Source: Candidatus Aminicenantales bacterium
GTDB lineage: Bacteria > Acidobacteriota > Aminicenantia > Aminicenantales > Saccharicenantaceae
DNA length: 44,348 nucleotides
Direction of reading: 5' to 3'
Assembly (NCBI GenBank): GCA_049512315.1
Contig: JBEKXF010000026.1
Coordinates: 1 to 44,348, forward strand
The translations under genes were made by a program, and so were the position numbers. The notes below the pieces were generated by a model. The model saw nothing but the letters and a program-made list of their open reading frames with translations, was not told the origin of the DNA and did not search any database. Positions 20,748-44,348 of this stretch are shown one piece after another (position 1 is the stretch's first letter; every line of letters starts with the position of its first letter).

Positions 20748-20936
20748 GGCAGACTCCTCCCCGTGTAACAGCCATGTCACAAAAAATGCTTAAACGCGCT
20801 TAATCCTGACTAAAGGTGCGTAAAGGAAAACAAAACAATTCCCCCTGGAAATTGGGTTTTCCCCATATGGCCAGGAGGGTGGAGCGTTGGACTCCGGATC
20901 CAAAATTCGAAGGTTTGAATCCTCTCTGGCATGCCA
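20748..20936 (+). repeat. att-like direct repeat: arm region plus degenerate tRNA-Arg(CCG) 3' fragment
   Basis: Near-identical to 21737-21925 (period 989 bp); tRNA part 20880-20936. Confidence 0.9.
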
Positions 20937-21047
20937 TTCTTTTACAGCTACCTCACCCATCGGGACCTCATCACCCCGACCCTGATGTTGACAGGATGGT
21001 TCATTCGCGTCCATAATAATATTATCAAGTTTGAGGGAAGGTTTGGA

Positions 21048-21736: not shown

Positions 21737-21925
21737 GGCAGACCTCTCCTCGTGTCACAGCCATGTCACAAAAAATGCTTAAACGCGCTTAATTCTGACT
21801 AAAGGTGCGTAAAGGAAAACAAGACATTTCCCCCTGGAAATCGGGTTTTCCCCATATGCCCAGAAGGGTAGAGCGTTGGACTCCGGATCCAAAGGTCGGA
21901 GGTTCGAATCCTCTCAGGCACGCCA
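21737..21925 (+). repeat. att-like direct repeat: arm region plus tRNA-Arg(CCG) 3' fragment
   Basis: TGTCACA x2 at 11-bp spacing followed by the tRNA 3' part. Confidence 0.9.
21869..21925 (+). tRNA. tRNA-Arg(CCG) 3' fragment (5'-truncated)
   Basis: Anticodon arm ttgga-ctCCGga-tccaa, T-arm with GGTTCGAATCC, acceptor strand ending CCA; the 5' acceptor strand is absent. Confidence 0.85.
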
Positions 21926-22221
21926 TCGATTTTCCCCCGAGAAACTCGAGAAGATTCCGCCAAATCGGGATCATAAAGCCCCGAATCCGATATGAGCTTG
22001 AATGAGGGGGAATTAGCACCAGATAGCCCCAGACACGATAAGAATCTTGAGCCTCCATTTTTTCGGATCCCGGACTTTCCCGGCTCTCCAGGATCCGGCG
22101 TTTTCAGTCCATTTTGGCACGCCACAGTCACACGGGCGGCACACGGGGAACGGATGGTCGGGGAGTTGCTTTTTATCTTAAATTAATATTTAATTATGGC
22201 ATCTGCGAATAGGAGGGAGAA

Positions 22222-22422: not shown

Positions 22423-22424
22423 GG

Positions 22425-23336
22425 ATGCCCAACTGGAGCGGACTTCTTAATAATATCAAGGCGCTGGGGAGCGTTAATGACGTTCTCCGACGTAAATACC
22501 TCAAAGAACTATCAGAAAAAACGAAAAGAAACACAATAATCTACTACAGCGGCTGGCTACAAAAACCAGGGGTTCCATTCGCTCTGATTAACGACGATGA
22601 CAAGAACGGATTCATGGCGACGATCAATAAACTTGATAGGTCGCTCGGTCTCGATTTGATTTTACATACCCCCGGCGGCGAGACAGCTGCCACTGAATCT
22701 ATAGTCGATTATTTGAGACAGATGTTTGGAACTAACATCAGGGCAATCGTGCCTCAACTTGCCATGTCGGGCGGAACCATGATTGCTTGTGCGTGCAAGT
22801 CAATATTAATGGGTAAAGAATCGAGTTTGGGACCCGTAGACCCACAACTGAATGGGATTCCGGCGCATGGAGTGATTGAGGAATTCACGAGAGCACATCA
22901 AGAAATCAGGGCGGATCCTTCAAAAATCCCAGTGTGGCAGCCGATTATTGCCAAATACCCACCGGCATTTATTGGAGAATGCCAAAAGGCCATAACGTGG
23001 TCTGTTCAACTCCTGCAGGATTGGCTGAAGACAGGGATGTTCCAAGGCGAAGCCAACCCAGATGCGAAAATCGGCGGGATTGCACGTGAATTGACCGACC
23101 ACGCCCTTACGTTATCTCATGCTCGGCATCTCTCGGCTGAAAAATGTGTAGCGATGGGCTTAAAAGTTGAGATGCTTGAGAGTGACCAGCAACTTCAGGA
23201 TGCCGTGCTCAGCGTTCACCATGCTTGTATGTTAACACTCTCCCAGACGTCTGCTGTGAAGATGATCGAAAATCAAGAAGGCACCGCATTTATTCAACAG
23301 GTTCAAATTCAACAAATCCAGGTTCCGGGTAGATAA
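22425..23336 (+). CDS. SDH-family (S49-like) Clp-fold serine protease
   Basis: LDLILHTPGG, AMSGGTMIA, SSLGPVDPQ, SHARH. Confidence 0.88.
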   Translation: MPNWSGLLNNIKALGSVNDVLRRKYLKELSEKTKRNTIIYYSGWLQKPGVPFALINDDDKNGFMATINKLDRSLGLDLILHTPGGETAATESIVDYLRQMFGTNIRAIVPQLAMSGGTMIACACKSILMGKESSLGPVDPQLNGIPAHGVIEEFTRAHQEIRADPSKIPVWQPIIAKYPPAFIGECQKAITWSVQLLQDWLKTGMFQGEANPDAKIGGIARELTDHALTLSHARHLSAEKCVAMGLKVEMLESDQQLQDAVLSVHHACMLTLSQTSAVKMIENQEGTAFIQQVQIQQIQVPGR

Positions 23337-23542
23337 CCCCCTGGATTCGCTATCCAGAGGTCAACCCTGGACGAAAAGACTTGATGTCGAGAATCCTGTC
23401 GAGGTGGATCCGGTCGTCCAGGGTGACGAAGGACGGGTGCTCTCAGGCCGGGGAGGGTCAGAGGCTGGGCCCTCCGTTGCGCCAGAGGACGCGGTTCGGC
23501 AATCGGGGCAGACCCCCGCGCTGTAAATGTCTATGCGCCCTC

Positions 23543-23740
23543 AAAAAATTGAGCAGAGATTGAGCAAACTCTTGCTCAAAAGAGCTCAGTCTAGCCTAAA
23601 CGTGATAAAACCATCAAGATCGTTAAATGCAAGAAAAATAGGCCGGGTGCGGTCCAACAGGGGAGAATCAGTCGCTGCTGATTTCTTCTGAGATCGTTTT
23701 TGAAGTCCGGAGGGATCACCGGATCCCTCACCCTCCCGTC
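23543..23740 (+). repeat. att-like direct repeat: arm region plus tRNA-Sec 5' half
   Basis: Aligns with 27129-27327 (period about 3586 bp). Confidence 0.85.
23699..23737 (-). tRNA. selC: tRNA-Sec(UCA) 5' half, truncated at the end of the anticodon loop
   Basis: GGGAGGGT-GA-GGGATC-CGGT-GATCCC-T-CCGGA-CTTCAAA fits selC geometry (8-nt acceptor strand, 6-bp D stem, 4-nt D loop, UCA anticodon). Confidence 0.8.
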
Positions 23741-23817
23741 GGAGGGATGATGGTATTGCGTCTCAGAACTAGTGTCAAGGACCGATGTCATCTGCCGCCA
23801 TTCGTCCCAAGCTCGGA

Positions 23818-23847
23818 TTGACTTCCCGCCCATCCCTCTGATAATCT
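23818..23847 (+). promoter_or_regulatory. Kinase promoter
   Basis: TTGACTtcccgcccatccctctgaTAATCT. Confidence 0.7.
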
Positions 23848-23875
23848 GAGCCCAAGCTACAGAAGGGGAACTCGC

Positions 23876-26800
23876 TTGGCCAACAAATGCCCGACCTGTC
23901 ATTCCGACAATCCTGAGACTCTGAAATTCTGCGGGGAGTGCGGCACCCAGCTCCTTCCGCCCCAAAACCATCCTCCGGCCATGACGGAAACCCTTCAGAC
24001 GCCCGTCCACGAGCTCACCTCGGGCTCCACCTTCGCCGGCCGCTACCAGGTGATCGAAGAGCTGGGCCACGGCGGCATGGGCCGGGTCTATAAGGTCTTC
24101 GACACAGACATCAAGGAGAAGATCGCCCTCAAGCTCCTGCGGCCCGAGATCGCGCTCGACAAAGAGACCGTCGAACGCTTCTCGAACGAGCTCAAGCTCG
24201 CCCGGAAGATCAGCCAACGCAACGTCTGCCGGATGTTCGACCTCGGTAAGGCCGAAGGCACGACCTTCATTACCATGGAGTTCGTGCCGGGCGAGGACTT
24301 AAAGAAGTTTATCCGGAAGACGGGCCAGCTCGGGGCGGGCCGAACCGTCTCGATTGCGAAGCAAGTATGCGAGGGATTGGCGGAGGCCCACCACTTCGGG
24401 GTTGTCCATCGCGACCTGAAGCCCCAGAACATCATGGTGGACGAGGACGGGAACGCCCGGATCATGGACTTCGGCATCGCCCGTTCCATCAAGGCTAAAG
24501 GAATCACCGGCGCCGGGGTGATGATCGGGACGCCGGAGTACATGTCGCCGGAGCAGGTCGAGGGGAAGGAGGTTGACCAGCGCTCGGATATCTATTCGCT
24601 GGGGGTCATCCTCTTCGAGATGGTGACGGGCCATGTGCCGTTCGAGGGCGACACGCCTTTTACCATTGGCGTGAAGCACAAGAGCGAGCGGCCCCGGAAC
24701 CCGCGCGAGCTTAATTCCCAGCTTCCCGAGGACCTTAGCCGGGTCATCCTCCGCTGCCTGGAGAAGGATAAAGCCAAGCGCTATCAAACGGCGGGGGAAT
24801 TGCGGGCCGACCTCGAAAAGGTCGAGCAGGGCCTGCCGACGACCGAGCGCGTTATCGCTCCCAAGAAGTCTTTCAGTTCCCGGGAGATCACCGTTAAGTT
24901 CAACCTACGAAAGCTCGCCGTCCCTTTAACAGCCTTCATCGTCCTGGCCGCCGCGGCCGTCATTCTTGTGAAATTCATCCCTCACAAAAAGGCGCCTGCC
25001 GCGCCCAAGATCGAGAACTCCATAGCCGTCATCAGCTTTGAGAATCATACGGGAGATAAAGCCTTCGACTATTTACAAAAGGCCATTCCTGACCTTCTGA
25101 TCACCAGCCTGGAGCGGGAAAACAAGCTCTATGTGGCCACCTGGGAACGGATGCAAGACCTTCTTGAACAGATGGGAAAAAAGAATGTCGAAGTCATCGA
25201 CAGGCCACTCGGTTTTGAACTATGCCGAAAAGAAGGAATCAAGACGATCGTTTTGGGCAGCTACATCAAGGCCGGAGAGACCTTTGCCACAGATGTGAAA
25301 GTGTTGGACGTGGACACCAAGAAACTGCTCAGGAGCTCCAGCTCAAAGGGAGAGGGCGTTTCCAGCATCATCAATAACCAGATCGATGAACTGACCAAGG
25401 AGATCTCCGAGGGCGTAGGCCTGGCGGGAAAAGGCGTTGAACCCGCAGAGAGGTCGATCGCTGATGTCACGACCAGTTCGATGGAAGCTTACAGATATTA
25501 TTTGGAGGGGAGGGAGAATTACCAAAAGACCTATGCCGTTGATGCGCGGATCGCTTTAGAAAAGGCCGTTAAGCTTGATCCGGATTTTGCCATGGCTTAT
25601 TACTTACTCTCTTTGTCAAATGGTTACCTCGGAAATGATGAAGCCCAGGTCGCCGCCCTTAAAAAGGCCAAAGCTTTGTCGCTCAAGGCAACCGAAAAGG
25701 AAAGGCTCTATATCGAGGCGTATTATGCCGACCTCGTAGAAAAAGATTCTGAAAAATGTTTGCGCATCCTCCGGCAGATGGTCGAAAAATATCCCAAGGC
25801 AAAAGGAATATTTTTTAATCTGGGTATTCATTACGTTAATAAGGAAGCCTATGATGAAGCCATAATAGAGTATAATAGAGCCCTGGAGCTCGATCCCAAC
25901 TATGGAATGGCCCATAATAACTTAGGTTTTGTCTATATCGCTACAGGGGATTTTTCAAAGGCGGTTGAGCATCTTCAAAAATACGTGTCCTTGCGTCCGG
26001 GTGAGGCCAATCCGCTTGATTCTCTGGCTGAGGCCTATTTTGATATGGGCCAGCTGGATGAGGCCATAGCGAATTACAAAGAAGCGTTAAAGATAAAATC
26101 TGATTTTTTTAATTCCTGTTTTAGTGTCGGGTACACTTATGCCTTGAAGGCGGACTATGCTGAGGCGCTGAGATGGATGGATAAATTCACCGCCATGGCT
26201 CCTTCTCCGGGGACAAAAAGGGCGGGGTATCTATGGAAAGGGTTTTGCCGCTTCTGGTCGGGGAGTTTGAAGGACGGCGATTTTTACTTTCGTGAAGCCG
26301 AAGAAACGTCAGAACCGGGGTATGTTTGGGGGCGACCGTTCATAAACTGGGTCAAGGCCTTCATTTATTACGACCGGGGAGAGCTGGATCAAAGCCGCAG
26401 GTCTAATGAAGCCTGGCTTAACGATTTTATTAAAGTTTATCCTGAAGACAAATTACACTATCAGGAAGTCTATAAATTCCTATCGGGGCTATTAGAATTA
26501 AAAGCCGGGCATATGGATTCAGCCAAGAATATATTATCAGAGATGAAATCACTCTTTATAAAGATGCCGCCCTGGCGGAAAGAATGGGTGTCGTTCTATA
26601 TCAATTTCCTAAGTGCCGAGTTGGCGATAAAAGCCGGATCCCCCGAAAAGGCTATCGCGGTTTTAAAGGAACAAACACCCTTACGCCCACCAACCCTTAG
26701 TTTTCAAGATTCAACGATGTGGTATAACCTGCCCATCATGAAGGACGTCTTGCCCCGGGCGTATGAGCAGAAAGGCGACATAGACGGAGCCATTGCTGAA

Positions 26801-27016
26801 TATGAGCGGCTGATCACCTTTAACCCCAAGAACCTCTCGCGCTATCTCATCCATCCCAAATACCATTACCGGCTGGCTAAGCTTTACGAACAGAAAGGCC
26901 TGAAGGCGAAAGCGGTCGAGCAATACCAGCGCTTCCTCGACCTCTGGAAGGACGCCGACCCCGGCCTGCCAGAGGTTGCGGATGCTCGGAAGCGGCTGGC
27001 CGGTCTTCAGAATTGA
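23876..27016 (+). CDS. Zinc-ribbon Ser/Thr protein kinase with TM, TolB-N-like domain and TPRs (K4)
   Basis: TTG start; kinase motifs; SIAVISFEN; TPRs; [15 protein letters not shown] tail. Confidence 0.95.
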
Positions 27017-27128
27017 TATTGGCGGCTTCGCCCTCCCCGTTGCCTCGACGTCAGTGCAAGGGTAGGATTGGGCCTCGATTCTCCCCAACATAAAGGCGGG
27101 CCACCCCACCATAATTGTCATAGGTCGA

Positions 27129-27327
27129 AAAAAATTGCGCAGAGATTGTGCAGACTCCTGCACAAAATAGCTCAGTCTAGCCTAAACGTGATAAAACCAT
27201 CAAGATCTGTAAATGCAAGAAAAACAAGCCGGATGCGGTCCAACAGGGGAGAATCCACCAGTGCCAATTTCCGCCGGGATCGTTTTTGAAGTCCGGAAGG
27301 CCCACCGGGAACCTTGACCCTCCCGTC
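27129..27327 (+). repeat. att-like direct repeat: arm region plus tRNA-Sec 5' half
   Basis: Aligns with 23543-23740. Confidence 0.85.
27285..27324 (-). tRNA. selC: tRNA-Sec(UCA) 5' half, second allele
   Basis: GGGAGGGT-CA-AGGTTC-CCGGT-GGGCCT-T-CCGGA-CTTCAAA. Confidence 0.75.
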
Positions 27328-27372
27328 TGTAGCGGCTCCAATGCTTTAAAATTTCACTCCACAGATAGTACA

Positions 27373-27459
27373 GGGACTTTATCCTTGAAAAATGGTCCAT
27401 CCATAATGTGAGCTTGAAAATCTCACTTCAGAGGTGGTACGTTGAGCTAGGGCAGGTCA
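27373..27459. mobile_element. About 90-bp palindromic MITE-like unit (two IS3-like ends)
   Basis: Homologous to 41729-41819; ends ggcaggtca. Confidence 0.6.
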
Positions 27460-27460
27460 C

Positions 27461-27595
27461 CTTCGAAAGAAGTGGACCTTCCGCCACAGGGGCTGGGCTA
27501 TGATACACTCCCAGCTGATGATCTATTTTGGCGACCGTTTGGGTGAACGTGCTTAAATGCGAAGAAGGGGTTTACGCAGGATATCTGACACTCCC
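27461..27595 (+). mobile_element. IS256-family 3' remnant (transposase C-terminus plus right IR)
   Basis: LRKKWTFRHRGWAMIHSQLMIYFGDRL* then tttacgcaggatatctgacactccc. Confidence 0.75.
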
Positions 27596-27706
27596 GGGAT
27601 TCAAGCTTAGCAGCGTGTCCTTTTTTCCGGGGGAAGACTACGTCTCATAATGGGGCTCAACAAACCTTGTATCTTTACTGTTGCACTTGGGACATTTATA
27701 CTGGGT

Positions 27707-28279
27707 TTATTTCTTTATCTTCTTCCCTTCCGAAAATGCATCGCCCAAGTATTTACCAATACCATAATAGGTGCGGTTTGCCGGATCAAAGATCATCGGT
27801 TTTATCTTCCCGATGTCAGGCGCTCCGTCTTTCCCTAGCACCGCCTCATCGGCCTTTACATCCTTGATCTCGCCGATAAAGAGCGTATGTGATCCTAATT
27901 TTACAACTTGGATTACGGAGCATTCCAAAATAAATGGGAACTCCTTAACATAAGGGGCATCCACATGGTCGCTTTTTACAGGCGTAAGCTTCGTAGTGGC
28001 AAACTTATCCTCTGTCCTGCCTGAAACAATCCCGAAGTAATCAGCTTCTTTGATAAATTTCTCTGAAGGGATACTTATCGTGAAGGCCTTCCTTGCTATG
28101 ATATTGCCATAGGTATAAGTAGCTTCCCTGATGGAGATTCCGATACAGGGAGGATGTGAACAACAAATACCACCCCAAGCAACGACCATTGCATTCGGCC
28201 TTCCGGATTTATCGTATGATCCTACGACAAAAACAGGCGTTGGAAAAACAGTGGTTTTCGCTCCGATAGGCTTCTTCAT
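27707..28279 (-). CDS. Flavin reductase family protein (flavoredoxin-like)
   Basis: [36 protein letters not shown]. Confidence 0.9.
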
Positions 28280-28522
28280 GACCTGCCGTCGCTCAATGTA
28301 CCACCTCGGAATTGAGATTTTCAAGCCTGACGACCTCTGTAGTGGATGCTTCATATCCATAAGGTCCCTCAAAGAGTTCAGTTCTGGGCATGCTCCGTAC
28401 CTCGTGCTGGGAGAAGCGTGGAAAATGCGCTAGAGGGCGCGAGAGAGGCGGAGAAGGGGAATTTCTGTTCTGGGGCGCATCGGTATTCCAGGGGCACATG
28501 GCTAAACCCGGGCCCAGTTGCC

Positions 28523-28990
28523 TCATCCGTTCTCGCCGAACGACTCGATCAGCCCCTTGAGCACGAGGATATGCGACTGATCCCCTCGCATAAGGTCGAC
28601 AAACAGCTTCTTGAGGGAAGGCTCCGTAACCTTCATGGACGTGTCCAGGTGGATCTTTTCGAAGCGCTTCTCGAACTCGAGCATTTTCTTAAGGCACTCC
28701 AGAAGGGGGGCCTTGCCGTGCCCGAGTGACGCATGGAACATCTTGGCCTCTTCGAATCCTTCCCTGGCATCGTTGTCATCCATCGTGATTCCGGAGAACG
28801 CGTCAGGCATTTCGTCGTAATACGTCTTACCCCTGCGGAGAACATTGGCGTGGTTGACTTCCTCGTTTGCCAGCGTTTTGAGCCGCGTGGCGATGGGCGG
28901 ATCTCCAGAAAGCTCGGCGATCGTTTCATAAAGCTTCGAGATCTGAGTTTCGAACTCCACGCCCAGGTCGAGGAATTTTGGGATGTCCAT
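28523..28990 (-). CDS. Ferritin-like/rubrerythrin-domain protein
   Basis: E..LY, LANEEVNH, second helix pair with DQSH; RBS ggagg. Confidence 0.75.
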   Translation of the reverse strand: MDIPKFLDLGVEFETQISKLYETIAELSGDPPIATRLKTLANEEVNHANVLRRGKTYYDEMPDAFSGITMDDNDAREGFEEAKMFHASLGHGKAPLLECLKKMLEFEKRFEKIHLDTSMKVTEPSLKKLFVDLMRGDQSHILVLKGLIESFGENG

Positions 28991-29239
28991 TGCTGACCTC
29001 CGTCCTAGGAGCTCATCATTCACATGATGGCCATCTATTTCAAGAGCCCGGGGCCATGCCTAGGCCCAGTCACTTCATGTGTCCTGTGCTGCCCCGATTT
29101 TACTGCTACCCTGAAGGCGGCGCAACGTGAAAGTTCTTAGGCCCGCCAGAACGTTTTACGGTCGGAGGCACGCGCCTTGAACTTGCTGTGCAGAAGTCTA
29201 CCGTGGACGAGAGGCCTTGATGTCGATAATCGTTACGAT

Positions 29240-29344
29240 ATGAACCCGGTCGCGCAGCGTCGCGGGGCGCTTGGCGGCGGCGCGGGCGGCGTACTTGCTT
29301 GAAAATCTTGCTTCAGAGGTGTTACATTTAGCGGAGGCAGGTTA
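29240..29344 (+). mobile_element. Miniature-element remnant: reversed gene tail (copy C) fused to right IS3-like end
   Basis: Minus-strand SKYAARAAAKRPATL; junction gtacttgcttgaaaatc identical to 6801. Confidence 0.65.
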
Positions 29345-29376
29345 CTCACAGTCCACTAATGGAAGGGAGAGTTTCC

Positions 29377-30429
29377 ATGAAGATTTCGGGTTTGCACCGT
29401 TTTGCGATTTGCGCGTCTTTTCTATTGCTTGCCACTGTGGCTCTTGCAGGTCCATCGGTGGTCAATTATCACCTGATTAAGAAAATTCCTCTCAGCGCGG
29501 CACCGGGTGGGAAGGAGTATTTTGACTATATCACGATTGACCCTGCAATGCGCCGTATCTACCTCTCGCACGGCACCGAGGTTAAGGTGGTTGATGCCGA
29601 TAATTATGCCGTGTTGGGCACCATCTCTGGCTTGGAACGATGCCATGGGATCGCGTTAGTCAAGGACCTTGGCAAGGGATTTATCACTGACGGTGACCCG
29701 GGCAAGGTGGTCATTTTCGATATTGCGACCTTAAAAGTTACTGGTGAGGTCAAAGCCGAACCCGATGCAGACGCTATCATCTATGATCCGGCGTCGAAGC
29801 GCATATTTTCGTTCAACGGAAACTCTAAAGACGCGACGGTTATCGATCCTGCCAAGGGAACCGTCGTGAAGACTATCCCCTTGGGCGGTGGTCCGGAGAA
29901 CGCCGTCGCCGATGGCAAAGGAATTGTTTACAACAACAATGAAGAAACGAACGAGGTCGTGGCAATCGATTCCGGAGCACTCACGATCAAGGCACGGTGG
30001 CCGGTTGCGCCGGCCGGAGCACCTACAGCAATGGCAATGGACAGGGCGCACCGGCGGCTATTCTCTGCAGGCCGCAACCCCAAGTTCCTCGTCGTCATGA
30101 ATGCCGACAACGGCAAAGTCATCCAATCATTCCCGATCAGCGGCGGTGTTGATGCCATTGTCTACGAGCCAGAGACCGGGCTCATTTTTGCTTCGACGCG
30201 TGAGGGCATGGTCCACATCTTCCACGAAGACTCGCCCGACAAGTATAGTGAGTCCCAGACGGTTAAGACCGAGGTCGGGGCCAAAACGATGGCACTCGAT
30301 CCCAAGACTCACAACGTCTTCCTGACCACATCGGATTTTGGTCCGCCTCCCGCTCCCACCCCGGATCGCCCCCATCCGAATCCGGCCGCGATCCCGGGAA
30401 CGTTCCGCCTGCTAGTTTACGGACGCTGA
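29377..30429 (+). CDS. Secreted YncE/YVTN-like beta-propeller protein
   Basis: Signal peptide; FDYITID, repeated propeller blades, GAKTMALDP, PGTFRLLVY. Confidence 0.85.
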   Translation: MKISGLHRFAICASFLLLATVALAGPSVVNYHLIKKIPLSAAPGGKEYFDYITIDPAMRRIYLSHGTEVKVVDADNYAVLGTISGLERCHGIALVKDLGKGFITDGDPGKVVIFDIATLKVTGEVKAEPDADAIIYDPASKRIFSFNGNSKDATVIDPAKGTVVKTIPLGGGPENAVADGKGIVYNNNEETNEVVAIDSGALTIKARWPVAPAGAPTAMAMDRAHRRLFSAGRNPKFLVVMNADNGKVIQSFPISGGVDAIVYEPETGLIFASTREGMVHIFHEDSPDKYSESQTVKTEVGAKTMALDPKTHNVFLTTSDFGPPPAPTPDRPHPNPAAIPGTFRLLVYGR

Positions 30430-30479
30430 GAGGTCAGCGCAAAGTCGGATTGCTAGGGGAGGTCGAAACAGTTCCGCCC

Positions 30480-30660
30480 ACCTTCCCGAGGGGGTCAGGG
30501 CAGACCTCCGCGCCGCTATAGAGAAATTGGGACCGGTTCGGTGGGCCGGTGCGGGCCGCGGCCCAGGCCACATACGAACGCTACCTGAAGTCGCAGGGCA
30601 TTAAGGACGAGATCAGGAGCTAGGACTGCTGCTTCTTCTTCCTCGTCGCCTGGAAGCGCG
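30480..30660 (+). pseudogene. Degraded C-terminal fragment, DUF3810-like
   Basis: HLPEGVRADLRA/frameshift/WDRFGGPVRAAAQATYERYLKSQGIKDEIRS*. Confidence 0.45.
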
Positions 30661-30704
30661 GCGGGGTTCGCTGGCCAACGCCTCATATGCTATAATCTTG
30701 CTCC

Positions 30705-31460
30705 ATGAGATACCGGGCCCACCCGCAGCAAGCCGGTTTCTTCCGCCGCTTTTTCGCCTTTGCCACCGACACGCTGATTCTGACGGTCTTGGCCGTCGCC
30801 GTCTTTTTCGCCGGCAACGAGGCCGTCGCCCGGCTCGACGGTAGGTCGGGGGAGTTCTCAAAGTTCGTGCGGGCCCTGCATGAGGGGGCCTCCGTCAGCA
30901 TAAGTATGGGGGACACAGCCTCGGGCTTAGCGATTGGGAATCCCAAGTCGTCTGAAGCCGAATTCACTAAGGCTTTTCTCCAAAAGCTCCGGGCGGCCCT
31001 CTCCGAGGACGAATTCGTCAAGACCATCGGGATGAGTCTAGGGGAACTGGAGAAAGAGTATCCAAGGATCATGGACGAATTCCCCGCCGGCCCCGGCAAG
31101 GTCTATATCATCGGCGGAAAGGACTTGTCCGTCATTTACGAATTCGTCTGCGGCTATGCCTACTTCATATTGTTTTTCCGCTTCGGCGGACGGCCGCTGG
31201 GAAAGCGGCTGTTCGGGCTCAAGGTTATCGACCTCTCTGGCAAGCCCTATCTCGGCTGGTACCAGGCGTTCGAGCGTACGCATGGGTATGCGGCGTCCAT
31301 GCTTGCCGCTTCCCTGGGTTTTCTCCAGGTCCTCTGGGACCACGAGGGCCTAGCGATGCACGACAGACTCGCCGGCACAACGGTCGTCCGGTGGAAAAAG
31401 CCCGTTCCCCCCCCGGCCCCTGATAAGCCCGAGGAGAGTAAAACGGAGGGGGCGCCATAA
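30705..31460 (+). CDS. RDD family membrane protein
   Basis: AGFFRRFFAFATD, GRPLGKRLFGLKVI, MHDRLAGTTVV. Confidence 0.88.
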   Translation: MRYRAHPQQAGFFRRFFAFATDTLILTVLAVAVFFAGNEAVARLDGRSGEFSKFVRALHEGASVSISMGDTASGLAIGNPKSSEAEFTKAFLQKLRAALSEDEFVKTIGMSLGELEKEYPRIMDEFPAGPGKVYIIGGKDLSVIYEFVCGYAYFILFFRFGGRPLGKRLFGLKVIDLSGKPYLGWYQAFERTHGYAASMLAASLGFLQVLWDHEGLAMHDRLAGTTVVRWKKPVPPPAPDKPEESKTEGAP

Positions 31461-31507
31461 AAAGCCCCTGGTCATATTCTGAGCTAGACCTTGCGCCGGG
31501 GCTTTTT
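31459..31507. terminator. Probable terminator
   Basis: aaaagcccc...ggggcttttt right after the RDD stop. Confidence 0.45.
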
Positions 31508-31704
31508 CATTTATACATCATATTCAAGGCCAAAAAAGCGGAAAGCAATAAGGCCAGCTAAGCGCTCGGCCCGCAGGAACGGGCGGTATCACTTCCGGTT
31601 CATGAAGGCGCCGATGTCCGAGGACAACTGCTGAAGCGAGGGAAGGTACGTGTACATCATCTGGCCGCCGGCAGTAATGACCAGATTCGAAAGGAGGAAA
31701 AACA

Positions 31705-32118
31705 ATGTCAAAAGATACTGATGTTCGATGGGGATGGCTGAAATTTATGTATGTCTACACCATTGTTGTGGCAGGAGGATTCGGGTTGGTAATAATTTTT
31801 GTCCCGAATATCATGACATCTGTGTTCGGTTGGCCTATTGAAGAGCCAATAGCTTTGGGAATCGCAGGCAGTGCCTTTATGGCTTTCGGGATTTTATCAA
31901 TATTCGGCCTGCGGGCTCCTCTAAGATTTGTGCCAATTCTCGTACTACAACTGTGCTATAAGTCAATCTGGTTCGTTGGCGTTGTTCTGCCTTTGTTGTT
32001 CACCGGGCGATTTCCAAACTATGCCATATTCTCTGCTGTATTATTCGCCACCTTCATTGTGGGTGATCTGATCGCGATACCGTTTCCTTATATCTTTTCA
32101 AAGCAAACAGGTCAGTAG
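31705..32118 (+). CDS. Hypothetical 4-TM membrane protein
   Basis: RBS aggagg; four hydrophobic helices; QLCYKSIW motif. Confidence 0.8.
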   Translation: MSKDTDVRWGWLKFMYVYTIVVAGGFGLVIIFVPNIMTSVFGWPIEEPIALGIAGSAFMAFGILSIFGLRAPLRFVPILVLQLCYKSIWFVGVVLPLLFTGRFPNYAIFSAVLFATFIVGDLIAIPFPYIFSKQTGQ

Positions 32119-32358
32119 TCTCAGCCCTCGTGCATTGGCATATAATCAGGCAGGCGGTAAACTCTTCCAAGCCGCATAACAACTCCCAGCAGCTGCCCGG
32201 TCAGCTCATCTCGTTGCCGTTGGTACGGTTTTGTGTCTATTAAGTTGGTTCATCAATATTATTAATGGGAACATTTGATAATTTTGGACCCCTAAATATG
32301 CCTCAGCTAGGATTTGAACCTCAGACCGCTAGGTTCACAGTTGCTATCCAAAATTAAG

Positions 32359-32721
32359 CTAAAATTGTAGCCAAGCTGGATTTGAACCTAAATACGCTTG
32401 GTCGCAGGTCAGAAGGCCCTTATACTTGAAGTGCTTCCCTTGTTTGACCATGACACGGCGGGCATCGAGGACCTCCTGCACGGCATCGAACAGGCCCTTG
32501 TCGATTCCGAACATCTTGTAGAACTCCTTAACCGACTTGCCCTCGTCGTGGGCCTTGAGGATGGCGGCCGCGTTCGCGTCGACCTGGCCCTGGATCTTGG
32601 CTGCCTTGTCAGCCTTCTCTTTGGCCGGCTTGACCTCTGCCGTCCTCGTCTTGGTTTCCGTCCCTGCCGGGACCGCCGCGCGGACGGCCTCGACGGCCTT
32701 CGCCGTTTTCTTCTTGGTCAT
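32359..32721 (-). CDS. Hypothetical protein with Lys/Ala-rich N-terminus
   Basis: RBS ggagg before ATG 32721; GC3-rich codons except the last about 15. Confidence 0.6.
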   Translation of the reverse strand: MTKKKTAKAVEAVRAAVPAGTETKTRTAEVKPAKEKADKAAKIQGQVDANAAAILKAHDEGKSVKEFYKMFGIDKGLFDAVQEVLDARRVMVKQGKHFKYKGLLTCDQAYLGSNPAWLQF

Positions 32722-32834
32722 CTTTTCTCCTCCCAGGCCTATAGTCTCAGATTGGTTCCGGAATGCACACAAGAATGTTCCTCAGCAAGTCGCAGATAAC
32801 GGCCGGAATGCGAAAGACATTATTGCCACTGGGA

Positions 32835-33113
32835 CCGTAGGCTATCGGGATTTCGGGGAGAGGGGACATTGTCTGCAGCGTATGGCATGGAAGCTTCAGG
32901 AATACGGTCACTAAATGGATTGACTTCGTGATCCCACGGCGTTATAAATTAACCAGCAAGGGATTAGGGGAAGTCGAAGGTCATCCTTCACCAAAAATCA
33001 ATCTTTGCCGTCCCCGTATCTCTGAATCACTTTAAAGGAGGGGTTCTATGAAACGCTTTGGTTTTGCGGTTGGCCTGGTCCTCTTGGTCTTCGCAGTCTC
33101 GCTCTGGGCACAG
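32835..33113 (+). repeat. Repeated promoter + leader + signal-peptide module (copy 2)
   Basis: Aligns with 8103-8381; TTGACT(32920)-17-TATAAA. Confidence 0.85.
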
Positions 33114-33602
33114 ACGACGGTTCCGAAGCCCGATCTTGAGCTCAAAAAGCTCGGTGTTATCGTGGGCCATTGGACGTACGAAGGCGAGTACATGGCTAGC
33201 CCATTGGGACCGGGTGGAAAGGCCAAAGGCGAGGAGTTTATTCAATGGATTCTGGGAGGATTCTTTTTACAGGATCTGGAGATAGAAAAAGGAGCCCTGG
33301 GGGAGATGCGAGGAGCTCTTCTCTATGCGTACGATCCGGTCAGCAAGAATATTGTCTGTAGCGGACTTGGGAGCGACGGAGGCCCAGCTTCAGGAATCGT
33401 TAAGGTCAGCGGAAACACGATAACTTGGGAAGGAAAGTACGTCTTTGGGGCCAAGGAGAACTTGCTGAAAGCAACCTATATAGTCGCCGTAGACCTCATG
33501 AGCATGACGCAGAAAGTCGAGATTTCCGTAGATGGGAAGACCTGGGCTCCCTTCTTTGATGCCATATTTAGCAAAGCCAAGCCCGCGCCTAAGACGAAGT
33601 AG
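33048..33602 (+). CDS. Secreted DUF1579-like beta-barrel protein
   Basis: Signal peptide; LKKLGVIVGHWTYEG, WILGGFFL, YDP, ISVDGKTW; paralog of 38506. Confidence 0.75.
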   Translation: MKRFGFAVGLVLLVFAVSLWAQTTVPKPDLELKKLGVIVGHWTYEGEYMASPLGPGGKAKGEEFIQWILGGFFLQDLEIEKGALGEMRGALLYAYDPVSKNIVCSGLGSDGGPASGIVKVSGNTITWEGKYVFGAKENLLKATYIVAVDLMSMTQKVEISVDGKTWAPFFDAIFSKAKPAPKTK

Positions 33603-33684
33603 CTGACAGCTGACTGAACAAGACATAAGCGCTGGGGGCCACCCTGTCTGGGGTGGTCTCAAGAGGGTCTGCAAGGGGGTTCCT

Positions 33685-34146
33685 ATGAAACGCATAGCTT
33701 TCGTGGTCGGACTGGTCGTCTTGGTCTTTGCAGTCGCCATCCTGGCCCAGACAGGGGCAAAGCCAAAAGGGCAGACGGCCGAACAAGAGCTGTTGAAGCT
33801 CGAGCAAGAGTGGACGAATGCAGATCTCAAGAGCGATTGGGCCACCATGGACCGGATTCTGGCGGATGACTATGTGCTCACCGACAGAGATGGTGAGGTC
33901 TCCACCAAAGCTCAGTGTGAGGCATTCATGAGGTCCGGCGAGGATAAGATATTAACCCTGGTGACAGACGACATGAAGGTCCGAGTCTATGGAGATGCGG
34001 CGGTAGTAATCCTACGCTCCACGATCAAAGAAACATATCGAGGGGAGGAGATCAGCGACGTCTGTCGGATCACCAATACCTGGATCAAAAAGGCCGGCCG
34101 CTGGCAGTGCGTGGCAACTCACGGCTCAAGAATAGCTGGAAAATAG
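33685..34146 (+). CDS. Secreted NTF2-like/DUF4440 protein
   Basis: Paralog of 8316-8765. Confidence 0.85.
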   Translation: MKRIAFVVGLVVLVFAVAILAQTGAKPKGQTAEQELLKLEQEWTNADLKSDWATMDRILADDYVLTDRDGEVSTKAQCEAFMRSGEDKILTLVTDDMKVRVYGDAAVVILRSTIKETYRGEEISDVCRITNTWIKKAGRWQCVATHGSRIAGK

Positions 34147-34330
34147 CTCCCTAAGGTCTGACGGCCTCTTTAGCTCAACGAGCAATTAGGGGTGCTCGCT
34201 CGCAGTCCCAGTACTGCACAACCATTGCACAGTTGACAGAGGCGTCATCTTAAGCCCCTCTAATTTCTATCAATTAACAATGCCCATTCGGGGTGCCAAG
34301 AACTGGCAGTCCAGCTCTGGCATCCCACGT

Positions 34331-34360
34331 TTGACTTCCCGCCCATGCCTCTGTTAATCT
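34331..34360 (+). promoter_or_regulatory. Kinase promoter
   Basis: TTGACTtcccgcccatgcctctgtTAATCT, identical to 39165. Confidence 0.7.
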
Positions 34361-34387
34361 TGGGCCAAGCTAGAAAAGGGGGCCATT

Positions 34388-36838
34388 GTGGCCATCAAGT
34401 GCCCGATATGTCACGCCGATAATCCCGAGACGGTGAAGTTCTGCGGGGAGTGCGGGACGCAGCTTCCTCCTTCCCAGGGCCATCCTCCAGTCGTGAAGGA
34501 AACCCTCCAGACGCCGGGCATTTGGCTGCCCAAAGGAACGATCGTCGCAGGAAAATACAGGATCATCGATGAGATCGGCCGGGGCGGGATGGGCATTGTC
34601 TATAGGGCTGAAGATACGAAACTCCAGCGCGCCGTCGCCCTGAAGTTTCTGCCCGAAGAGCTGGCCCATGACCACCAGGCCGTCGAGCGTTTCCAGCGCG
34701 AAGCCCGGGCCGCGTCCGCCCTGAACCACCCCCATATCTGCATCATTTACGATATCGATGAACATGAAGGAAAGTACTTTATCGCGCTCGAGTTCCTTGA
34801 GGGGAAGACGCTGCGGGAATATCTGCTGGGCAAGCGGCTGGATGTGGACCAAATTGTCGATATCGGGATTCAGGTTGCCGGCGGGCTTGAGGCCGCCCAT
34901 GCCAAAGGAATAATCCACCGGGACATCAAGCCGGGCAATATTTTCGTGACGGATTCGGGACAGGCCAAAATCCTGGATTTCGGGCTGGCCAAGCTTCTGC
35001 CTGAATGGAGGCCGACAGCCGAGGAGAAGGTCGCTCCCGGGATGCCGACGATGACAGCGGGGGAACTCCTGACCAGTCCAGATTCTACTGTCGGGACGGT
35101 GGCCTATATGTCGCCGGAACAGGCCCTGGGAAAAAACCTGGATGCGCGGACCGACCTGTTTTCCCTGGGAGTCGTCCTCTATGAGATGGCCACAGGAATT
35201 CTCCCATTCCGCGGAGATACGTCGGCCGCGCTCTTCGATGGAATTCTACACAAGGCCCCCGCCCCGCCAATTCGGCTTAACCCCGATCTCCCGGATGAGC
35301 TCGAACGCATCATCGACAAAACGCTCGAGAAAGACCGAGAGGTACGCTACCAGTCGGCCAAGGATGTCATAGTCGACTTGAAACGGCTGAAGCGCGAGCG
35401 CGAGTCCGGACGAGCGACCGTTCCCGGCGCCGCGGAATCCCCGCGCATCCCGTCGCTGGCGGTGCTGCCGTTCGCCAACTTGAGCGCGGACAAGGAGAAC
35501 GAGTATTTCAGCGACGGGTTGGCCGAAGACATTATCGACGCCCTGACGCAAGCGTCCGGGCTGCGCGTGATGGCGCGGACTTCGTCCTTTGCCTTCCGCG
35601 GCAAGGAGGCGGATGTGCGCGAGATCGGGGCGCGCCTCAACGTCGACCACATCCTGGAAGGCAGCGTGCGGCGGTCGGGCAACCGTATCCGAGTGACGGC
35701 CCAGCTGGTCAAGGCGAGCGACGGGTATCACCTGTGGAGCCAGCGCTTCGACCGGGAGATGACGGATGTCTTCGCCATCCAGGACGAGATCTCGCAGGCC
35801 ATTGTCGGGAAGCTGCAGGTACAGCTGACAGGGGGCCGTCCGCTCGTCAGGCGCTACACGGAGGACCTCGCCGCCTATGACCTCTGTCTAAAGGCCCGGT
35901 ACCACCTCTTGAAGATGACGCCGGAAGGGCGCGAGGCGGGCCGGCGCTACTGTGAGCAGGCTATCGCGCTCGACCCAAACTACGCCCTGGCGCATGTTAT
36001 GCTGGCCGAATCCTACTTTTGGAGTGCTTTCTGGGGAGCCGTGGATCCGCGGGATGCATTCTCCAGGGCGAAGTCGGCGGCGCTCGAGGCCCTCAGACTC
36101 GATGAGACCATCGCAGACGCCCACAGCGCATTAGGGACCGTGCTGGGCAGCGGCGAGTTCGATTGGCAGGGAGCTGAGCGGGAATTCCGCCGGGCCCAGG
36201 AGTTGAGGTTGTCCTCCGCGGCGTTCCGATACGACTACGTCTGGTGCTATGCCATGTGGTTTCTCCTGCCCCTGGGGCGAGCGGAACAGGCCTTGACCGA
36301 GATACGGCGGGCGCTGGAGCTGAATCCGCTCGACTCGTTCTACACTTCCCTGTTGGGGTGCCTCCTTTACATGACGCGACAATCCGAGCCAGCGATCGCG
36401 CAACTGCAGCACGCCATCACTCTGGACCCGACCTTCTTCTTCCCCTATTGGTTCCTCTCGCTCGCCCACCGGCTGAATGGGCAGCTCGACGAGTCCATCG
36501 CCGCGGCCGAGAAGGCGAACGAGCTCTCCGGGGGCAATGCGCTGACGCTGGGAGCGCTGGGCAGTGCCTACGGTCTGGCCAGCCGGACCGCCGAGGCGCG
36601 GCAATTGCTGGAGGAGTTGACGGCGCGACGGCGGTTGACCTATGTGCCCGCGTCCGCTTTCACATTTGTCCTTGGTGGTCTGGGAGAACGGGACGGGAGT
36701 CTGGAGTGGATCACAAGGGGTATCGAAGAGCGTGATCCGATCCTTGTGACATCATTCAAGATCTCGCCGAGCTTCGATCGCCTGCGATCTCACCAGGCCT
36801 TTAAGACTCTGCTGCGGAAGATGAACCTGGAACCCTGA
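34388..36838 (+). CDS. Zinc-ribbon Ser/Thr protein kinase with TolB-N-like domain and TPRs, no TM (K5)
   Basis: Kinase motifs (HRDIKP); [11 protein letters not shown]; TPRs. Confidence 0.95.
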
Positions 36839-36862
36839 GCAGGGATCTGCTGCCCGCTTCCA

Positions 36863-36909
36863 TGGACTCCGGATCTAAACGTCGGAGGTTCGAATCCTCT
36901 CAGGCACGC
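36863..36909 (+). tRNA. tRNA-Arg(CCG) 3' fragment
   Basis: tggactccggatctaaacgtcggaggttcgaatcctctcaggcacgc. Confidence 0.8.
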
Positions 36910-37151
36910 TCCCTTATTTTCCGTATTTCAGCCATTCAGCCTATCCCGATCTTCAGTGTGACACGGCGGGGGAGGGCTGTCTCACGGGGCCTTTTAAGAG
37001 TTCTTGACTACGACCCGCGGCCGGGAATATCATCGTTTCGTGATAGGGGGTATTGGCTACAAGCTTAGTGGCGTTAAAGTTGCGTAGCTCAATTGAATAG
37101 TTACCTAAATTTTTATCAATCAGTGGACTACAATCAAAAGGGAGGGAGGAT

Positions 37152-37784
37152 ATGAAAAGAGCGTTGCTTATAATTTTGGGTTTTGGGATTGTGTGCTCGC
37201 AGCTATTATCACAAGAGTTGGTGGTCCGCTTCCACTTCAAGGACCATCCTGAGCAGACGGAGGCAGCGCCCGAGGGGACCGCATTTGGAAGCCTCACAGG
37301 CCCAAATCAGTTCAATATGAGACCAAACGAGCCAGGCTTGCCGAGGTGGCTCAGTGTCCAGTCCCGTGATGATCTCAGCATATTTGGGGATGTATTTCGA
37401 AAAGCCTTGATATCCGATTTTGGAACATCGGAGGAAAACGATCCTGAACGAAAACTTATAAGGACGCGCCGCCTAGTCTCCGGTTTAGGGTTGGCCATCA
37501 GCTGGATAGGGACGGTCGTCGTTGATCTTCTCTATGATGATTGGTATCGATCGACCACAGTGATCCCCGTGGCGGGACCTTGGATAACGCTAGCCAGATT
37601 GGCGAGCCATCACGATCCAGGTTGGCCTGGGGCAAAAGCACTCCTTATTCTCTCCGGTGTCGCTCAAACCAGCCTTGCGACATATTTCATCATTTCACTA
37701 ACACGGCATCCCAAACCGAAAGAAACGAAAAGCGTGGCGATATCGGCGAGTTTCAATACAATCAACTTGAGGATTCAATTCTAG
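37152..37784 (+). CDS. Hypothetical exported/membrane protein
   Basis: RBS ggagg, signal peptide, IPVAGPW hairpin motif, C-terminal INLRIQF. Confidence 0.75.
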   Translation: MKRALLIILGFGIVCSQLLSQELVVRFHFKDHPEQTEAAPEGTAFGSLTGPNQFNMRPNEPGLPRWLSVQSRDDLSIFGDVFRKALISDFGTSEENDPERKLIRTRRLVSGLGLAISWIGTVVVDLLYDDWYRSTTVIPVAGPWITLARLASHHDPGWPGAKALLILSGVAQTSLATYFIISLTRHPKPKETKSVAISASFNTINLRIQF

Positions 37785-37925
37785 TTGAACGGTGCAGACG
37801 GACCTCGAGGGCGCGGTTCAGTAACAGATGCCGACGTATACGGCCGTGTCGGGCGAGAATTAGGGTCGAAGCCGGGGGGTCGGGACGTCCTCGGTCTGGC
37901 CGGCGATTCTGTCGGAGAGGCTCTC

Positions 37926-37968
37926 GACTCCGGATCCAAAGGTCGGAGGTTCGAATCCTCTCAGGCAC
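37926..37968 (+). tRNA. tRNA-Arg(CCG) 3' fragment
   Basis: gactccggatccaaaggtcggaggttcgaatcctctcaggcac, identical to the corresponding part of 21869-21925. Confidence 0.85.
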
Positions 37969-38169
37969 CTTCTGGACAGCCGCTCAACCCTATCTTAGGT
38001 TGTCTGTAAGTTAATCAGAGCGACGGTCCCATCGTCGACCCCATCGTCGCAGTGCGTTGGGCGCCGGTCAATCGTCTTTCCTGGCTAATCGGGGGGGGAT
38101 ATTTCGGTTTCAGGCCTCACCCTCAGGGGGGGAGGGAAACCCTACGGTCACGCGGGGAGAGGTCTTCGT

Positions 38170-38224
38170 TTAGAGCAGCAGACTCTTAATCCGCGGGTTG
38201 TAGGTTCGAGTCCTACACGGGTCA
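38170..38224 (+). tRNA. tRNA-Lys(CUU) 3' fragment
   Basis: tagagca-gcaga-ctCTTaa-tccgc-gggtt-gtagg-ttcgagt-cctac-acgggtca; no 5' acceptor strand. Confidence 0.8.
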
Positions 38225-38361
38225 TTCCCGTCTTCCAGAAATCTCAACCACTTACCCTGATTCCCTTTTTAGGCTGAGTTAGCAGAACTGAGCCATTTTA
38301 GGCGGTTTTGTCCCCGCCGTGTCCGCACGGCGGCTTCGGGGGATAAGTCGGCTCTAGCCTA

Positions 38362-38390
38362 TTGACTTCGTGTTCTCGCAATGCTATAAA
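38362..38390 (+). promoter_or_regulatory. Sigma70-type promoter
   Basis: TTGACT-17bp-TATAAA. Confidence 0.7.
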
Positions 38391-38505
38391 TTAAGGTACA
38401 GTAGATTAGGGCTAAACCGGGGTCAGTATAAGTCAGCTGATCGTTCACCTTGAAGGTGCCTTTTCTTCTCCCTAATCTATGAATTTTGTAAAAAGGAGGG
38501 GTTTT

Positions 38506-39054
38506 ATGAAACGTATGGCTCTTGTGGTTGGCATGGTCGTCTTGGTTTTCGCAGTCTCCCTTTGGGCTCAGACAACGGCTCCGCAGCCCGATCCAGAGCT
38601 CAAGAAGTTCGACGTCTTTTTGGGCCATTGGACATACGTGGGAGAATACAAGGCCGGCCTGTTGGGGCCAGCTAGCAAGGTTACGGGGGATTGGTCCGGC
38701 AACCAGATTCTCGGAGGATTCTTTTTTCAGGACCAGTTTACAGAAAAAGGGGTTGCTGGAGAGACGAGGGGATTTGAGATCATCGGCTACGACCCGGCGA
38801 ACAAGACCTTTTTCAGTAATGAATACCATAACGATGGAAACATGCTCTCAGGGGCGTATGCCTTCAGTGGAAGCACATTGACCTATACCGGCAAATTTAC
38901 CGTCGGAGGAAAGCCGTATATGATCAAGGCCACAGGCATATTAGCGGCGGATTCGATGAGTTTCACGATAAAAGCCGAAATCTCTCCCGATGGCACGACG
39001 TGGACGCCTTTTTTTGAAAATACATATACCAAGACCACGCCCACACCGAAGTAA
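38506..39054 (+). CDS. Secreted DUF1579-like beta-barrel protein
   Basis: Paralog of 33048; RBS aggagg; same signal-peptide family. Confidence 0.75.
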   Translation: MKRMALVVGMVVLVFAVSLWAQTTAPQPDPELKKFDVFLGHWTYVGEYKAGLLGPASKVTGDWSGNQILGGFFFQDQFTEKGVAGETRGFEIIGYDPANKTFFSNEYHNDGNMLSGAYAFSGSTLTYTGKFTVGGKPYMIKATGILAADSMSFTIKAEISPDGTTWTPFFENTYTKTTPTPK

Positions 39055-39117
39055 TAACTGACTGCCGACGGGGCGAGACAAAGGCGCTAGGCAACGCTGA
39101 GTCCGGAACGAATCGTA

Positions 39118-39155
39118 ACTCCGGATCCAAAGGTCGGAAATCCGAATCCTCTCAG
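39118..39155 (+). tRNA. Degenerate tRNA-Arg(CCG) 3' fragment
   Basis: actccggatccaaaggtcggaaatccgaatcctctcag. Confidence 0.7.
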
Positions 39156-39164
39156 CCCCCCCGT

Positions 39165-39194
39165 TTGACTTCCCGCCCATGCCTCTGTTAATCT
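39165..39194 (+). promoter_or_regulatory. Kinase promoter
   Basis: TTGACT...TAATCT as at 34331. Confidence 0.7.
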
Positions 39195-39220
39195 TAGGCC
39201 AAGCTAGAGAGGGGCCAGCG

Positions 39221-42556: not shown

Positions 42557-42752
42557 TGACCTTCCCTCCTTAAATCGAACTGAGAATATATATAAATAAA
42601 GCCCCGCCTAGCCAGCGGGGCTTTTCGTCCTACGGTCCCGGCTCAGTCCTCCTTCCGCCCCGGCCTGGGGTGGACGAAGCGCTTGTCGAGCGTCGCGGGG
42701 TGCTTGGCGGCGACGCGCTCGGCGTACTTGCTTTTGGGCAGGCGGCCGGCCC
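42557..42752 (+). mobile_element. Miniature element: left tip, terminator, reversed gene tail (copy D)
   Basis: tgaccttccctccttaaatcg; hairpin 42598-42625; minus-strand AGRLPKSKYAERVAAKHPATLDKRFVHPRPGRKED* at 42643-42750. Confidence 0.6.
42598..42625. terminator. Bidirectional intrinsic terminator
   Basis: aaagccccgc-ctagcca-gcggggctttt between convergent genes. Confidence 0.75.
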
Positions 42753-44147: not shown

Positions 44148-44172
44148 AGGAGGACGTTGGAGTCGGGACGGC

Positions 44173-44245
44173 CTAGCCCTCCTTATGCTCCGGCCTGGGG
44201 CGGACGAAGCGGCGGTCGAGAGTCACGGGTGCTTCGCGGCGACGC
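44173..44245 (-). pseudogene. Orphan gene tail (copy E, 1-nt deletion)
   Basis: VAAKHP/VTLDRRFVRPRPEHKEG*. Confidence 0.7.
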
Positions 44246-44348
44246 CATCTGGTGAGGTTAGGGCTTCCTGCCGGCCGTGTTGGTTTCAACCCATGCGGCG
44301 AAGGCGTGCATATATCTCGCGACGAATTCCCTTGTCGAGTCATTGACA

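Follow-up and report, generated by a model that had tools for sequence, protein, structure and literature searches.

The tRNA fragments described here form a real series of Arg and Lys pieces, far beyond what chance would give, and the DNA carrying them is probably part of a long flexible island, built by repeated traffic of tyrosine integrases at tRNA genes and afterwards decayed. The window, by which we mean the whole stretch analysed (44,348 nt, contig C26 of the source genome, G000), contains three tRNA-Arg(CCG) 3′ halves and one tRNA-Lys(CTT) 3′ part between two kinase genes. A 38-nt Arg pattern gave four matches in the window, against a mean of 0.00 and a maximum of 0 in 100 shuffles. 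ARAGORN called no intact tRNA in the 44,348 nt, no match to the tyrosine recombinase family PF00589 was found on the contig, and an Rfam scan of the window returned only two partial tRNA matches and one chance snoRNA match. The features are:

20748..20938, plus strand: upstream arm (family U1) and tRNA-Arg(CCG) 3′ half (at 20882), same system, outside the three-fragment stretch
21737..21926, plus strand: upstream arm (family U1) and tRNA-Arg(CCG) 3′ part (at 21858), with downstream arm D14
27285..27324, minus strand: tRNA-SeC 5′ half, with a second copy at 23699-23737
34388..36838, plus strand: Zn-ribbon Ser/Thr kinase-TPR gene K5, the left neighbour
36863..36909, plus strand: tRNA-Arg(CCG) 3′ half from the anticodon stem (95.7%, 2 mismatches), followed by a short eroded arm-like tract
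37004..37033, plus strand: sigma-70-like promoter module (consensus match only), left edge of the block in common with G031
37152..37784, plus strand: 210-aa gene, cargo of interval 1, with homologues in G031 (93% aa identity) and G001 (54%)
37785..37925, plus strand: right flank of interval 1, kept in G031 up to the anticodon arm
37926..37968, plus strand: tRNA-Arg(CCG) 3′ half, 100% over 43 nt
37969..38170, plus strand: spacer of about 200 nt between the Arg and Lys pieces of the doublet, in which a 10-nt sequence is directly repeated (38028 and 38040)
38171..38226, plus strand: tRNA-Lys(CTT) 3′ part, 98% identical to the intact gene on C14
38227..38335, plus strand: putative downstream att arm, family D4, with a tract at 38240 and direct repeats at 38309 and 38320
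38506..39054, plus strand: DUF1579 gene (182 aa), cargo of interval 2, with a signal-peptide-like, hydrophobic N-terminus
39118..39155, plus strand: decayed tRNA-Arg(CCG) 3′ half (92%; T arm and acceptor decayed), fused to the kinase promoter module
39158..39214, plus strand: reused kinase promoter/leader module, 13 matches in the genome
39221..41713, plus strand: Zn-ribbon Ser/Thr kinase-TPR gene K6

The Arg halves were compared with the intact tRNA-Arg(CCG) gene of the same genome (C11:94677-94753). Their CTCCGGA loops are sited at 36867, 37928 and 39119, and identity to the intact gene begins 4, 2 and 1 nt 5′ of the loop in the halves at 36863, 37926 and 39118, respectively, in agreement with the initial annotation of this DNA. 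That annotation had also called the upstream flanks unrelated. These flanks belong to three different clusters and are therefore mutually unrelated, although each has a homologue elsewhere. An Arg(TCG)-type site in G006 resembles 36867-36940 at 78%. The Lys 3′ fragment with its arm-like tract and two TGTCC motifs, likewise reported before, was recovered, with AATCTCAACCACTTA at 38240, a tract that we take to be IHF-site-like, the likeness being partial, and TGTCC at 38309 and 38320. Judged from its sequence, the 10-nt repeat in the preceding spacer may be arm-site-like as well. The intervals between the window fragments measure 1017, 203 and 893 nt. The Arg(CCG) halves at 20882 and 21858 and the tRNA-SeC 5′ halves at 23699 and 27285 had been overlooked. 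The D14 arm is also found at the intact tRNA-Arg(CCG) in G006, and the SeC pieces are traces of elements that restore the 5′ half. Both SeC halves, on the minus strand, sit in a 180-nt repeat flanking kinase gene K4; the intact tRNA-SeC gene on C17 has an integrase abutting it. The window could not be joined to an intact tRNA by way of contig ends, its left end being a repeat present in six other contig ends.

The two intervals between K5 and K6 had been described as each holding a single exported-protein gene. This stands for the gene count and for the hydrophobic N-termini of both products, but the 210-aa protein has two further hydrophobic segments and may thus be membrane-bound rather than simply exported. 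It matched no Pfam family; its nearest named relative is from a Candidatus Aminicenantia genome (93% identity), Atlas matches below 0.9 being used as leads only and three other weak matches being set aside. The kinase promoter module in front of K6 stands behind Arg, Thr and Arg(CCT) halves in five genomes. The half at 39118 and a half at C55:6023 have derived changes in the T arm and acceptor in common and carry the same promoter module. These common changes, together with the fusion to the module, indicate that the 39118 half was probably copied as a passenger of the kinase promoter module and is not the mark of an integration of its own. Six Zn-ribbon Ser/Thr kinase genes lie in a 30-kb part of the window (12111-41713), and the genome has 34 kinase-domain matches in total. 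Thirteen of these 34 are at most 5 kb from a fragment, as compared with 230 of 2910 genes, an enrichment that may reflect only shared residence in islands.

Fragments of this kind are abundant in the source genome, which has 72 non-intact tRNA matches on 28 contigs (68 with the first query set), including two contig-edge pieces of real genes. Among them are 3′ parts, 27 of Arg(CCG), 10 of Arg(CCT), 6 of Arg(TCG) and 5 of Thr(CGT). A 36-nt Arg(CCG) pattern was present in 67 of the 201 genomes of the order, and in at least two copies in 34, zero counts possibly reflecting a divergent tRNA or an incomplete assembly; the source genome has the highest number of copies (16), followed by a genome with 8. 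Relatives within Ca. Aminicenantia contain polar arrays: behind an intact tRNA stand 3′ halves in the same orientation, spaced 0.4-5 kb apart and in most cases with no integrase. An intact tRNA-Arg(CCG) precedes co-oriented halves in G139, G012, G189, G078, G101 and G172, three halves follow tRNA-Arg(CCG) within 43 kb in G018, and ten co-oriented halves follow tRNA-Arg(CCT) over about 73 kb in G009, a genome in which no integrase of the clade described below was detected. The 116 intervals between fragments had a median length of 1750 nt and a tyrosine recombinase was found in two of them, a share that is understated because the loci were centred on fragments and long elements are lost at locus edges. 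The count of about 70 scars in a 3.5-Mb genome suggests that a sizeable share of the accessory genome of Aminicenantia is acquired in this way.

The ends of the fragments delineate the crossover. The 5′ fragments end at tRNA position 39, the last base of the loop (L015:2772, positions 1-39; C24:28221, positions 2-39). Of the 22 Arg(CCG) 3′ fragments, 13 are continuously identical to the tRNA from a point within positions 28-34 onwards, 5 from an earlier and 4 from a later one. As these sequences show, the crossover region is the 7-nt anticodon loop, with the anticodon stem as symmetric core; the loop is a known class A integration site in the available portions of the Islander paper (PMC4383910) and of a review on archaeal recombinases (PMC8371274). 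Targets appear to favour a GA-N7-TC anticodon stem: by tRNA species, 10 of 14 with this stem were targets and 4 of 31 without it, and in the source genome fragments were found for 8 of 13 and 3 of 31, respectively (p=0.0008), both tests being inflated by relatedness. Five ARAGORN calls that were fragments or spurious (Ile-GAT on C3, Arg-CCG, Arg-TCT and Ser-TGA on C4, Asp on C6) and three fragment rows (two contig-edge pieces and one Ile match) had been set aside before the count in the source genome. Hybrids whose crossover lies 3′ of the loop occur in the source genome at C27:294, C4:5670 and C28:41620, and for these homologous exchange fits as well as integrase action. The hybrid halves have a Lys loop on an Arg(TCG) body or Arg(CCG) loops on TCG-type bodies, and the one on C4 was called an intact tRNA by ARAGORN. 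Of tRNA-Arg(TCG) itself the source assembly has only a 5′ half (C15:1789-1830), no intact copy being called.

The initial annotation had proposed that cargo passed between Lys- and Arg-targeting systems, and relatives support this. The segment 37004-37958 has 92% DNA identity to a block at a different locus in G031. The two sequences agree as far as the anticodon arm, from which point G031 has the loop and 3′ half of Arg(TCG) in place of Arg(CCG); in this single case the switch lies at the 5′ edge of the loop and the longest common stretch lies 3′ of the loop. An origin of the G031 flank from the surroundings of tRNA-Ser(GCT) was checked and rejected. In G001 the 54% identical homologue of the 210-aa gene has a Lys(CTT) half on either side and comes straight after an integrase. 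For the segment 38266-39107, made up of the DUF1579 gene, its leader and its arm, G006 has a counterpart of 79% identity that follows an Arg(TCG) half; other homologues come after an intact tRNA, Leu(CAA) in G003 and Arg(TCG) in G004. The sites found upstream of DUF1579 genes are thus Lys(CTT), Arg(TCG) or Leu(CAA), while six of about ten loci have no tRNA site just upstream. Compared across relatives, as the initial annotation had suggested, the intervals vary independently of each other at the between-species level.

The nested layout of the window recurs in four other genomes, as Glu-Arg-kinase-Glu (L039), Gln-Arg-genes-Gln (L070), Lys-Asp-genes-Lys (L063) and Thr-Arg-kinase-Thr (L026), and some doublets never return to the first tRNA type (for instance on C55, C27 and C6 of the source genome). 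Two different tRNA types are joined by 20 of 24 spacers of at most 500 nt, and by 38 of 92 longer ones (p=0.0004, the genomes being non-independent). Exchange of cargo between tRNA systems, as read from these alignments, is therefore supported, and the exchange network spans at least ten tRNA species, beyond Lys and Arg.

The arms cross tRNA boundaries as well. Family D4 has 10 members in 7 genomes and follows Lys, Arg(CCG), Arg(TCG) and Ala(GGC) sites, intact tRNAs among them. On the other hand, 148 of 242 downstream and 86 of 168 upstream flanks are singletons, so that many fragments lack a recognisable arm. The two window intervals have cores at both ends, but in neither are both ends provided with a clustered arm, such an arm being present only after the Lys part. 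Clustered flanks at both ends were found in only 20 of the 92 longer intervals, and several of those flanks are promoter modules.

Two observations concern the sites themselves. A conserved, hairpin-like insertion of about 30 nt occurs at the variable-loop position of Arg(CCT) 3′ fragments in 9 of 81 family genomes (in the source genome at C27:3141, C34:11296 and C28:1228, 10687, 12330 and 32954; also in G009, G007, G170 and others). It is absent from the intact tRNA-Arg(CCT) genes seen (C24 of the source genome, G009, G015), and it may be an att-site variant with a shifted crossover or blocked reuse. An element with a transposase-like frame, presumably IS110-like, lies in the arm repeat just 3′ of the intact tRNA-Arg(CCG) gene (C11:94860-96171). 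Its end also joins a tRNA-Asp arm repeat at the end of C30, near 72400; the two to three junctions seen raise the possibility of an insertion sequence with integrase arm repeats as its target.

The integrases found beside SeC, Lys, His, Arg(CCG), Arg(TCG), Arg(CCT), Thr and Ser(TGA) sites belong to one clade of 12 (starred in the tree), separate from two XerC/D-like proteins, the inner branching of the tree not being resolved. A profile of ten of these integrases matched in 14 of 58 family genomes. At 26 of 30 loci, no more than about 125 nt separated the 3′ end of the match from a tRNA or fragment, and 22 of the 26 had a GA-N7-TC anticodon stem. Nine of the 30 loci are members of the query; at the other 21 the site was adjacent in 18, 15 of them with this stem. 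The source genome has the most clade integrases (7). None was found at E≤1e-60 in the array genomes G009, G018, G078, G139 and G012, which marks the elements as visitors, in line with the island model for tycheposons. The one donor element scanned against PHROGs, in G014, has integrase, excisionase, terminase, tape-measure and primase-like genes and is phage-like; no conjugation genes were seen in it. A different arrangement occurs in G116 (C5:61887-64223, L128/L141), where a single Arg(ACG) half is flanked by two convergent clade integrases.

The order of blocks was also compared with public contigs, namely assembled contigs from 4 of 20 runs. Run X3, possibly related to the source sample, has the three blocks without differences and at similar depth (11-14). 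The public contigs break at the fragments, none bridging a fragment with 31 letters on both sides, and no clear excision junction was found among those compared. Run X6 covers 38199-39138 with 6 differences and leaves 37125-37785 uncovered. It has joints from 26982 to 37932 and from 21926 to 38171, with sides of only 27 letters and a likeness of 88, a hint, too weak to count as evidence, of a relative with interval 2 and without interval 1.

Taken together, we favour the following scheme for the island. Crossover takes place at the 7-nt anticodon loop, as the sequences show, and each integration displaces older DNA from the intact tRNA and leaves a 3′ half behind, as seen in the polar arrays of the relatives. 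Integrase and phage genes would then be lost, and small blocks of promoter plus gene would stay between the halves. Such blocks appear to move between arrays of different tRNAs, as the outcomes described above illustrate, and would bring along a foreign tRNA half and arm, producing layouts in which site A, a short spacer, site B, cargo and site A follow each other, here Arg-Lys-DUF1579-Arg. This movement is probably due to a single clade of related integrases whose arm and core (GA-N7-TC) sites resemble one another, aided by recombination between similar arms, promoters and kinase genes. Some halves, such as that at 39118, would be passengers copied with a cargo module, no integration having taken place there. 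The serial anticodon-loop integrations by several elements of the initial annotation are supported, since the breakpoints mostly lie at the loop edge, several arm families are present and a matching integrase clade exists; they do not hold as a one-to-one relation between fragments and integrations (39118). The two window intervals themselves are most likely relics, mobile only within larger units when a suitable element visits.

A broader reading, which we put forward tentatively and consider possible but doubtful, is that the Aminicenantia clade recognises a common GA-N7-TC core with related arms and recombines att sites with different loops. All tRNA-anchored arrays of a cell would then form one exchange network, an integron-like platform that has no integrase of its own and in which visiting phage-like elements shuffle promoter-bearing one-gene cassettes between loci, among them those of the expanding Ser/Thr kinase family. 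Were integrases the driver of the cross-tRNA exchange, this would account both for changes of target by integrases and for the spread of cargo and kinase paralogues from island to island. Natural site pairs for studying overlap tolerance exist in the loops of Arg-CCG, Arg-TCG and Lys-CTT, which have the same GGA/TCC core.

Other explanations have to be weighed against repeated integration and decay. It is unlikely that the 1-kb intervals are self-contained cassettes of an active integron-like system, excised and reinserted by an integrase acting in trans, with tRNA halves serving like attC and mismatched loops tolerated. The short, integrase-free intervals of one to three genes, the single arm family behind four tRNA types, the GA-N7-TC stems common to the targets of the source genome and the switch of the loop along with the 3′ half between G000 and G031 would all be expected of such cassettes, but the scarcity of clustered flank pairs, absent as arm pairs from both window intervals, the lack of clade integrases in the five array genomes, the decay of the fragments and the promoter-like modules carried by the cassettes themselves argue against it. 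We consider it improbable that a few ancient integrations were followed by spread and shuffling in which integrases had no further part and only recombination, homologous or by microhomology, acted on tRNA halves, arms, promoters and kinase paralogues. Against it, many halves show no difference from the tRNA (100% identity) and stand directly behind intact integrase genes, left breakpoints cluster at the loop edge, and the G031/G000 switch lies 5′ of the loop even though the longest common stretch lies 3′ of it. In its favour are the derived changes and promoter module that 39118 and C55:6023 have in common, the hybrids crossing 3′ of the loop, and the short spacers, many of which carry a single set of arm repeats, as deletion between repeats would leave.

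There is very little to recommend the idea that the halves are retained as signals for RNA processing or termination, or as sources of small RNAs, between cargo genes: many do abut gene ends or promoters, but changes in T arm and acceptor pile up without compensation and none of the terminator-like sites lies on a fragment. Finally, a block order created by chimeric assembly across repeated tRNA halves is scarcely credible. The public contigs do stop at each fragment; against this, identical repeats are at most about 45 nt long, the blocks in run X3 are of similar depth and match the window without differences, and the same layouts occur in genomes of 1-10 contigs.

Integron arrays string together units of one or two genes with a recombination site repeated between them, and the arrays described here resemble them in being rows of small gene units between such sites. 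They differ in that no integrase is adjacent on C26 and clade integrases are lacking in several array genomes of relatives, in that the sites are lambda-like tRNA att cores with arms, and in that the cassettes are not promoterless, given the promoter-like site at 37004 and the reused leaders (consensus matches only).

The base process, that is accretion and decay of tandem tRNA islands of the Islander class A, CIME or tycheposon-island type, is already known. The class A islands, in the accessible part of the Islander paper (PMC4383910), have a 3′ fragment displaced by tyrosine-integrase integration and crossover in the anticodon loop; co-oriented arrays 3′ of the intact gene, as in our relatives, are a further likeness. 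The window departs from them in the length of its intervals, which fall outside the 2-200 kb class, and in the lack of an integrase. Its contig has no intact tRNA; in G018, G009 and others an intact, co-oriented tRNA stands upstream of the fragments. Filters that require an integrase and at least 2 kb, as that part of the paper gives them, would reject the window intervals of about 1 kb without integrase (PMC4383910), and such arrays are thus invisible to island finders of this kind. The same portion counts only four tandems of at least three among 3919 islands (PMC4383910); the arrays described here, in contrast to those tandems, mix several tRNA types.

CIMEs formed by site-specific accretion are, as far as the accessible text of PMC5704250 goes, decayed elements that lack integration genes and pile up one behind another at a tRNA; the att sites inside such a row are chimeric, and composite excision is possible. 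Loss of integration and transfer genes is found here too, but the window intervals keep at most one recognisable arm, the donor examined is phage-like and cargo crosses tRNA targets. The tycheposon islands of Prochlorococcus (bioRxiv 10.1101/2020.12.28.424599, in its available part) combine transient integrase elements with persistent islands and scattered partial tRNAs, most islands being element-free. The persistent tRNA-anchored arrays in genomes without a clade integrase agree with this. The phylum is a different one, and nested foreign tRNA halves and cross-tRNA arm families are, relative to that available part, features of the Aminicenantia arrays. The arrays described here are remarkable for their density, for the nested foreign sites and for arm families common to several tRNA targets. 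Our literature search, in which subscription journals were poorly covered, returned no description of such arrays in Aminicenantia or of a GA-N7-TC target preference.

Other repeats were seen in the window. A 49-nt repeat at 74, 6807, 27412, 28279, 29297 and 41772 lies upstream of unrelated genes and looks like a portable promoter module, and further common leaders are found at 8129/32862 and at 8186/32919/38361. A family of repeats of 80-95 nt, in both orientations and beside terminator-like hairpins (376-456, 6716-6810, 42639-42733 and 44169-44263), apparently consists of remnants of one gene end.
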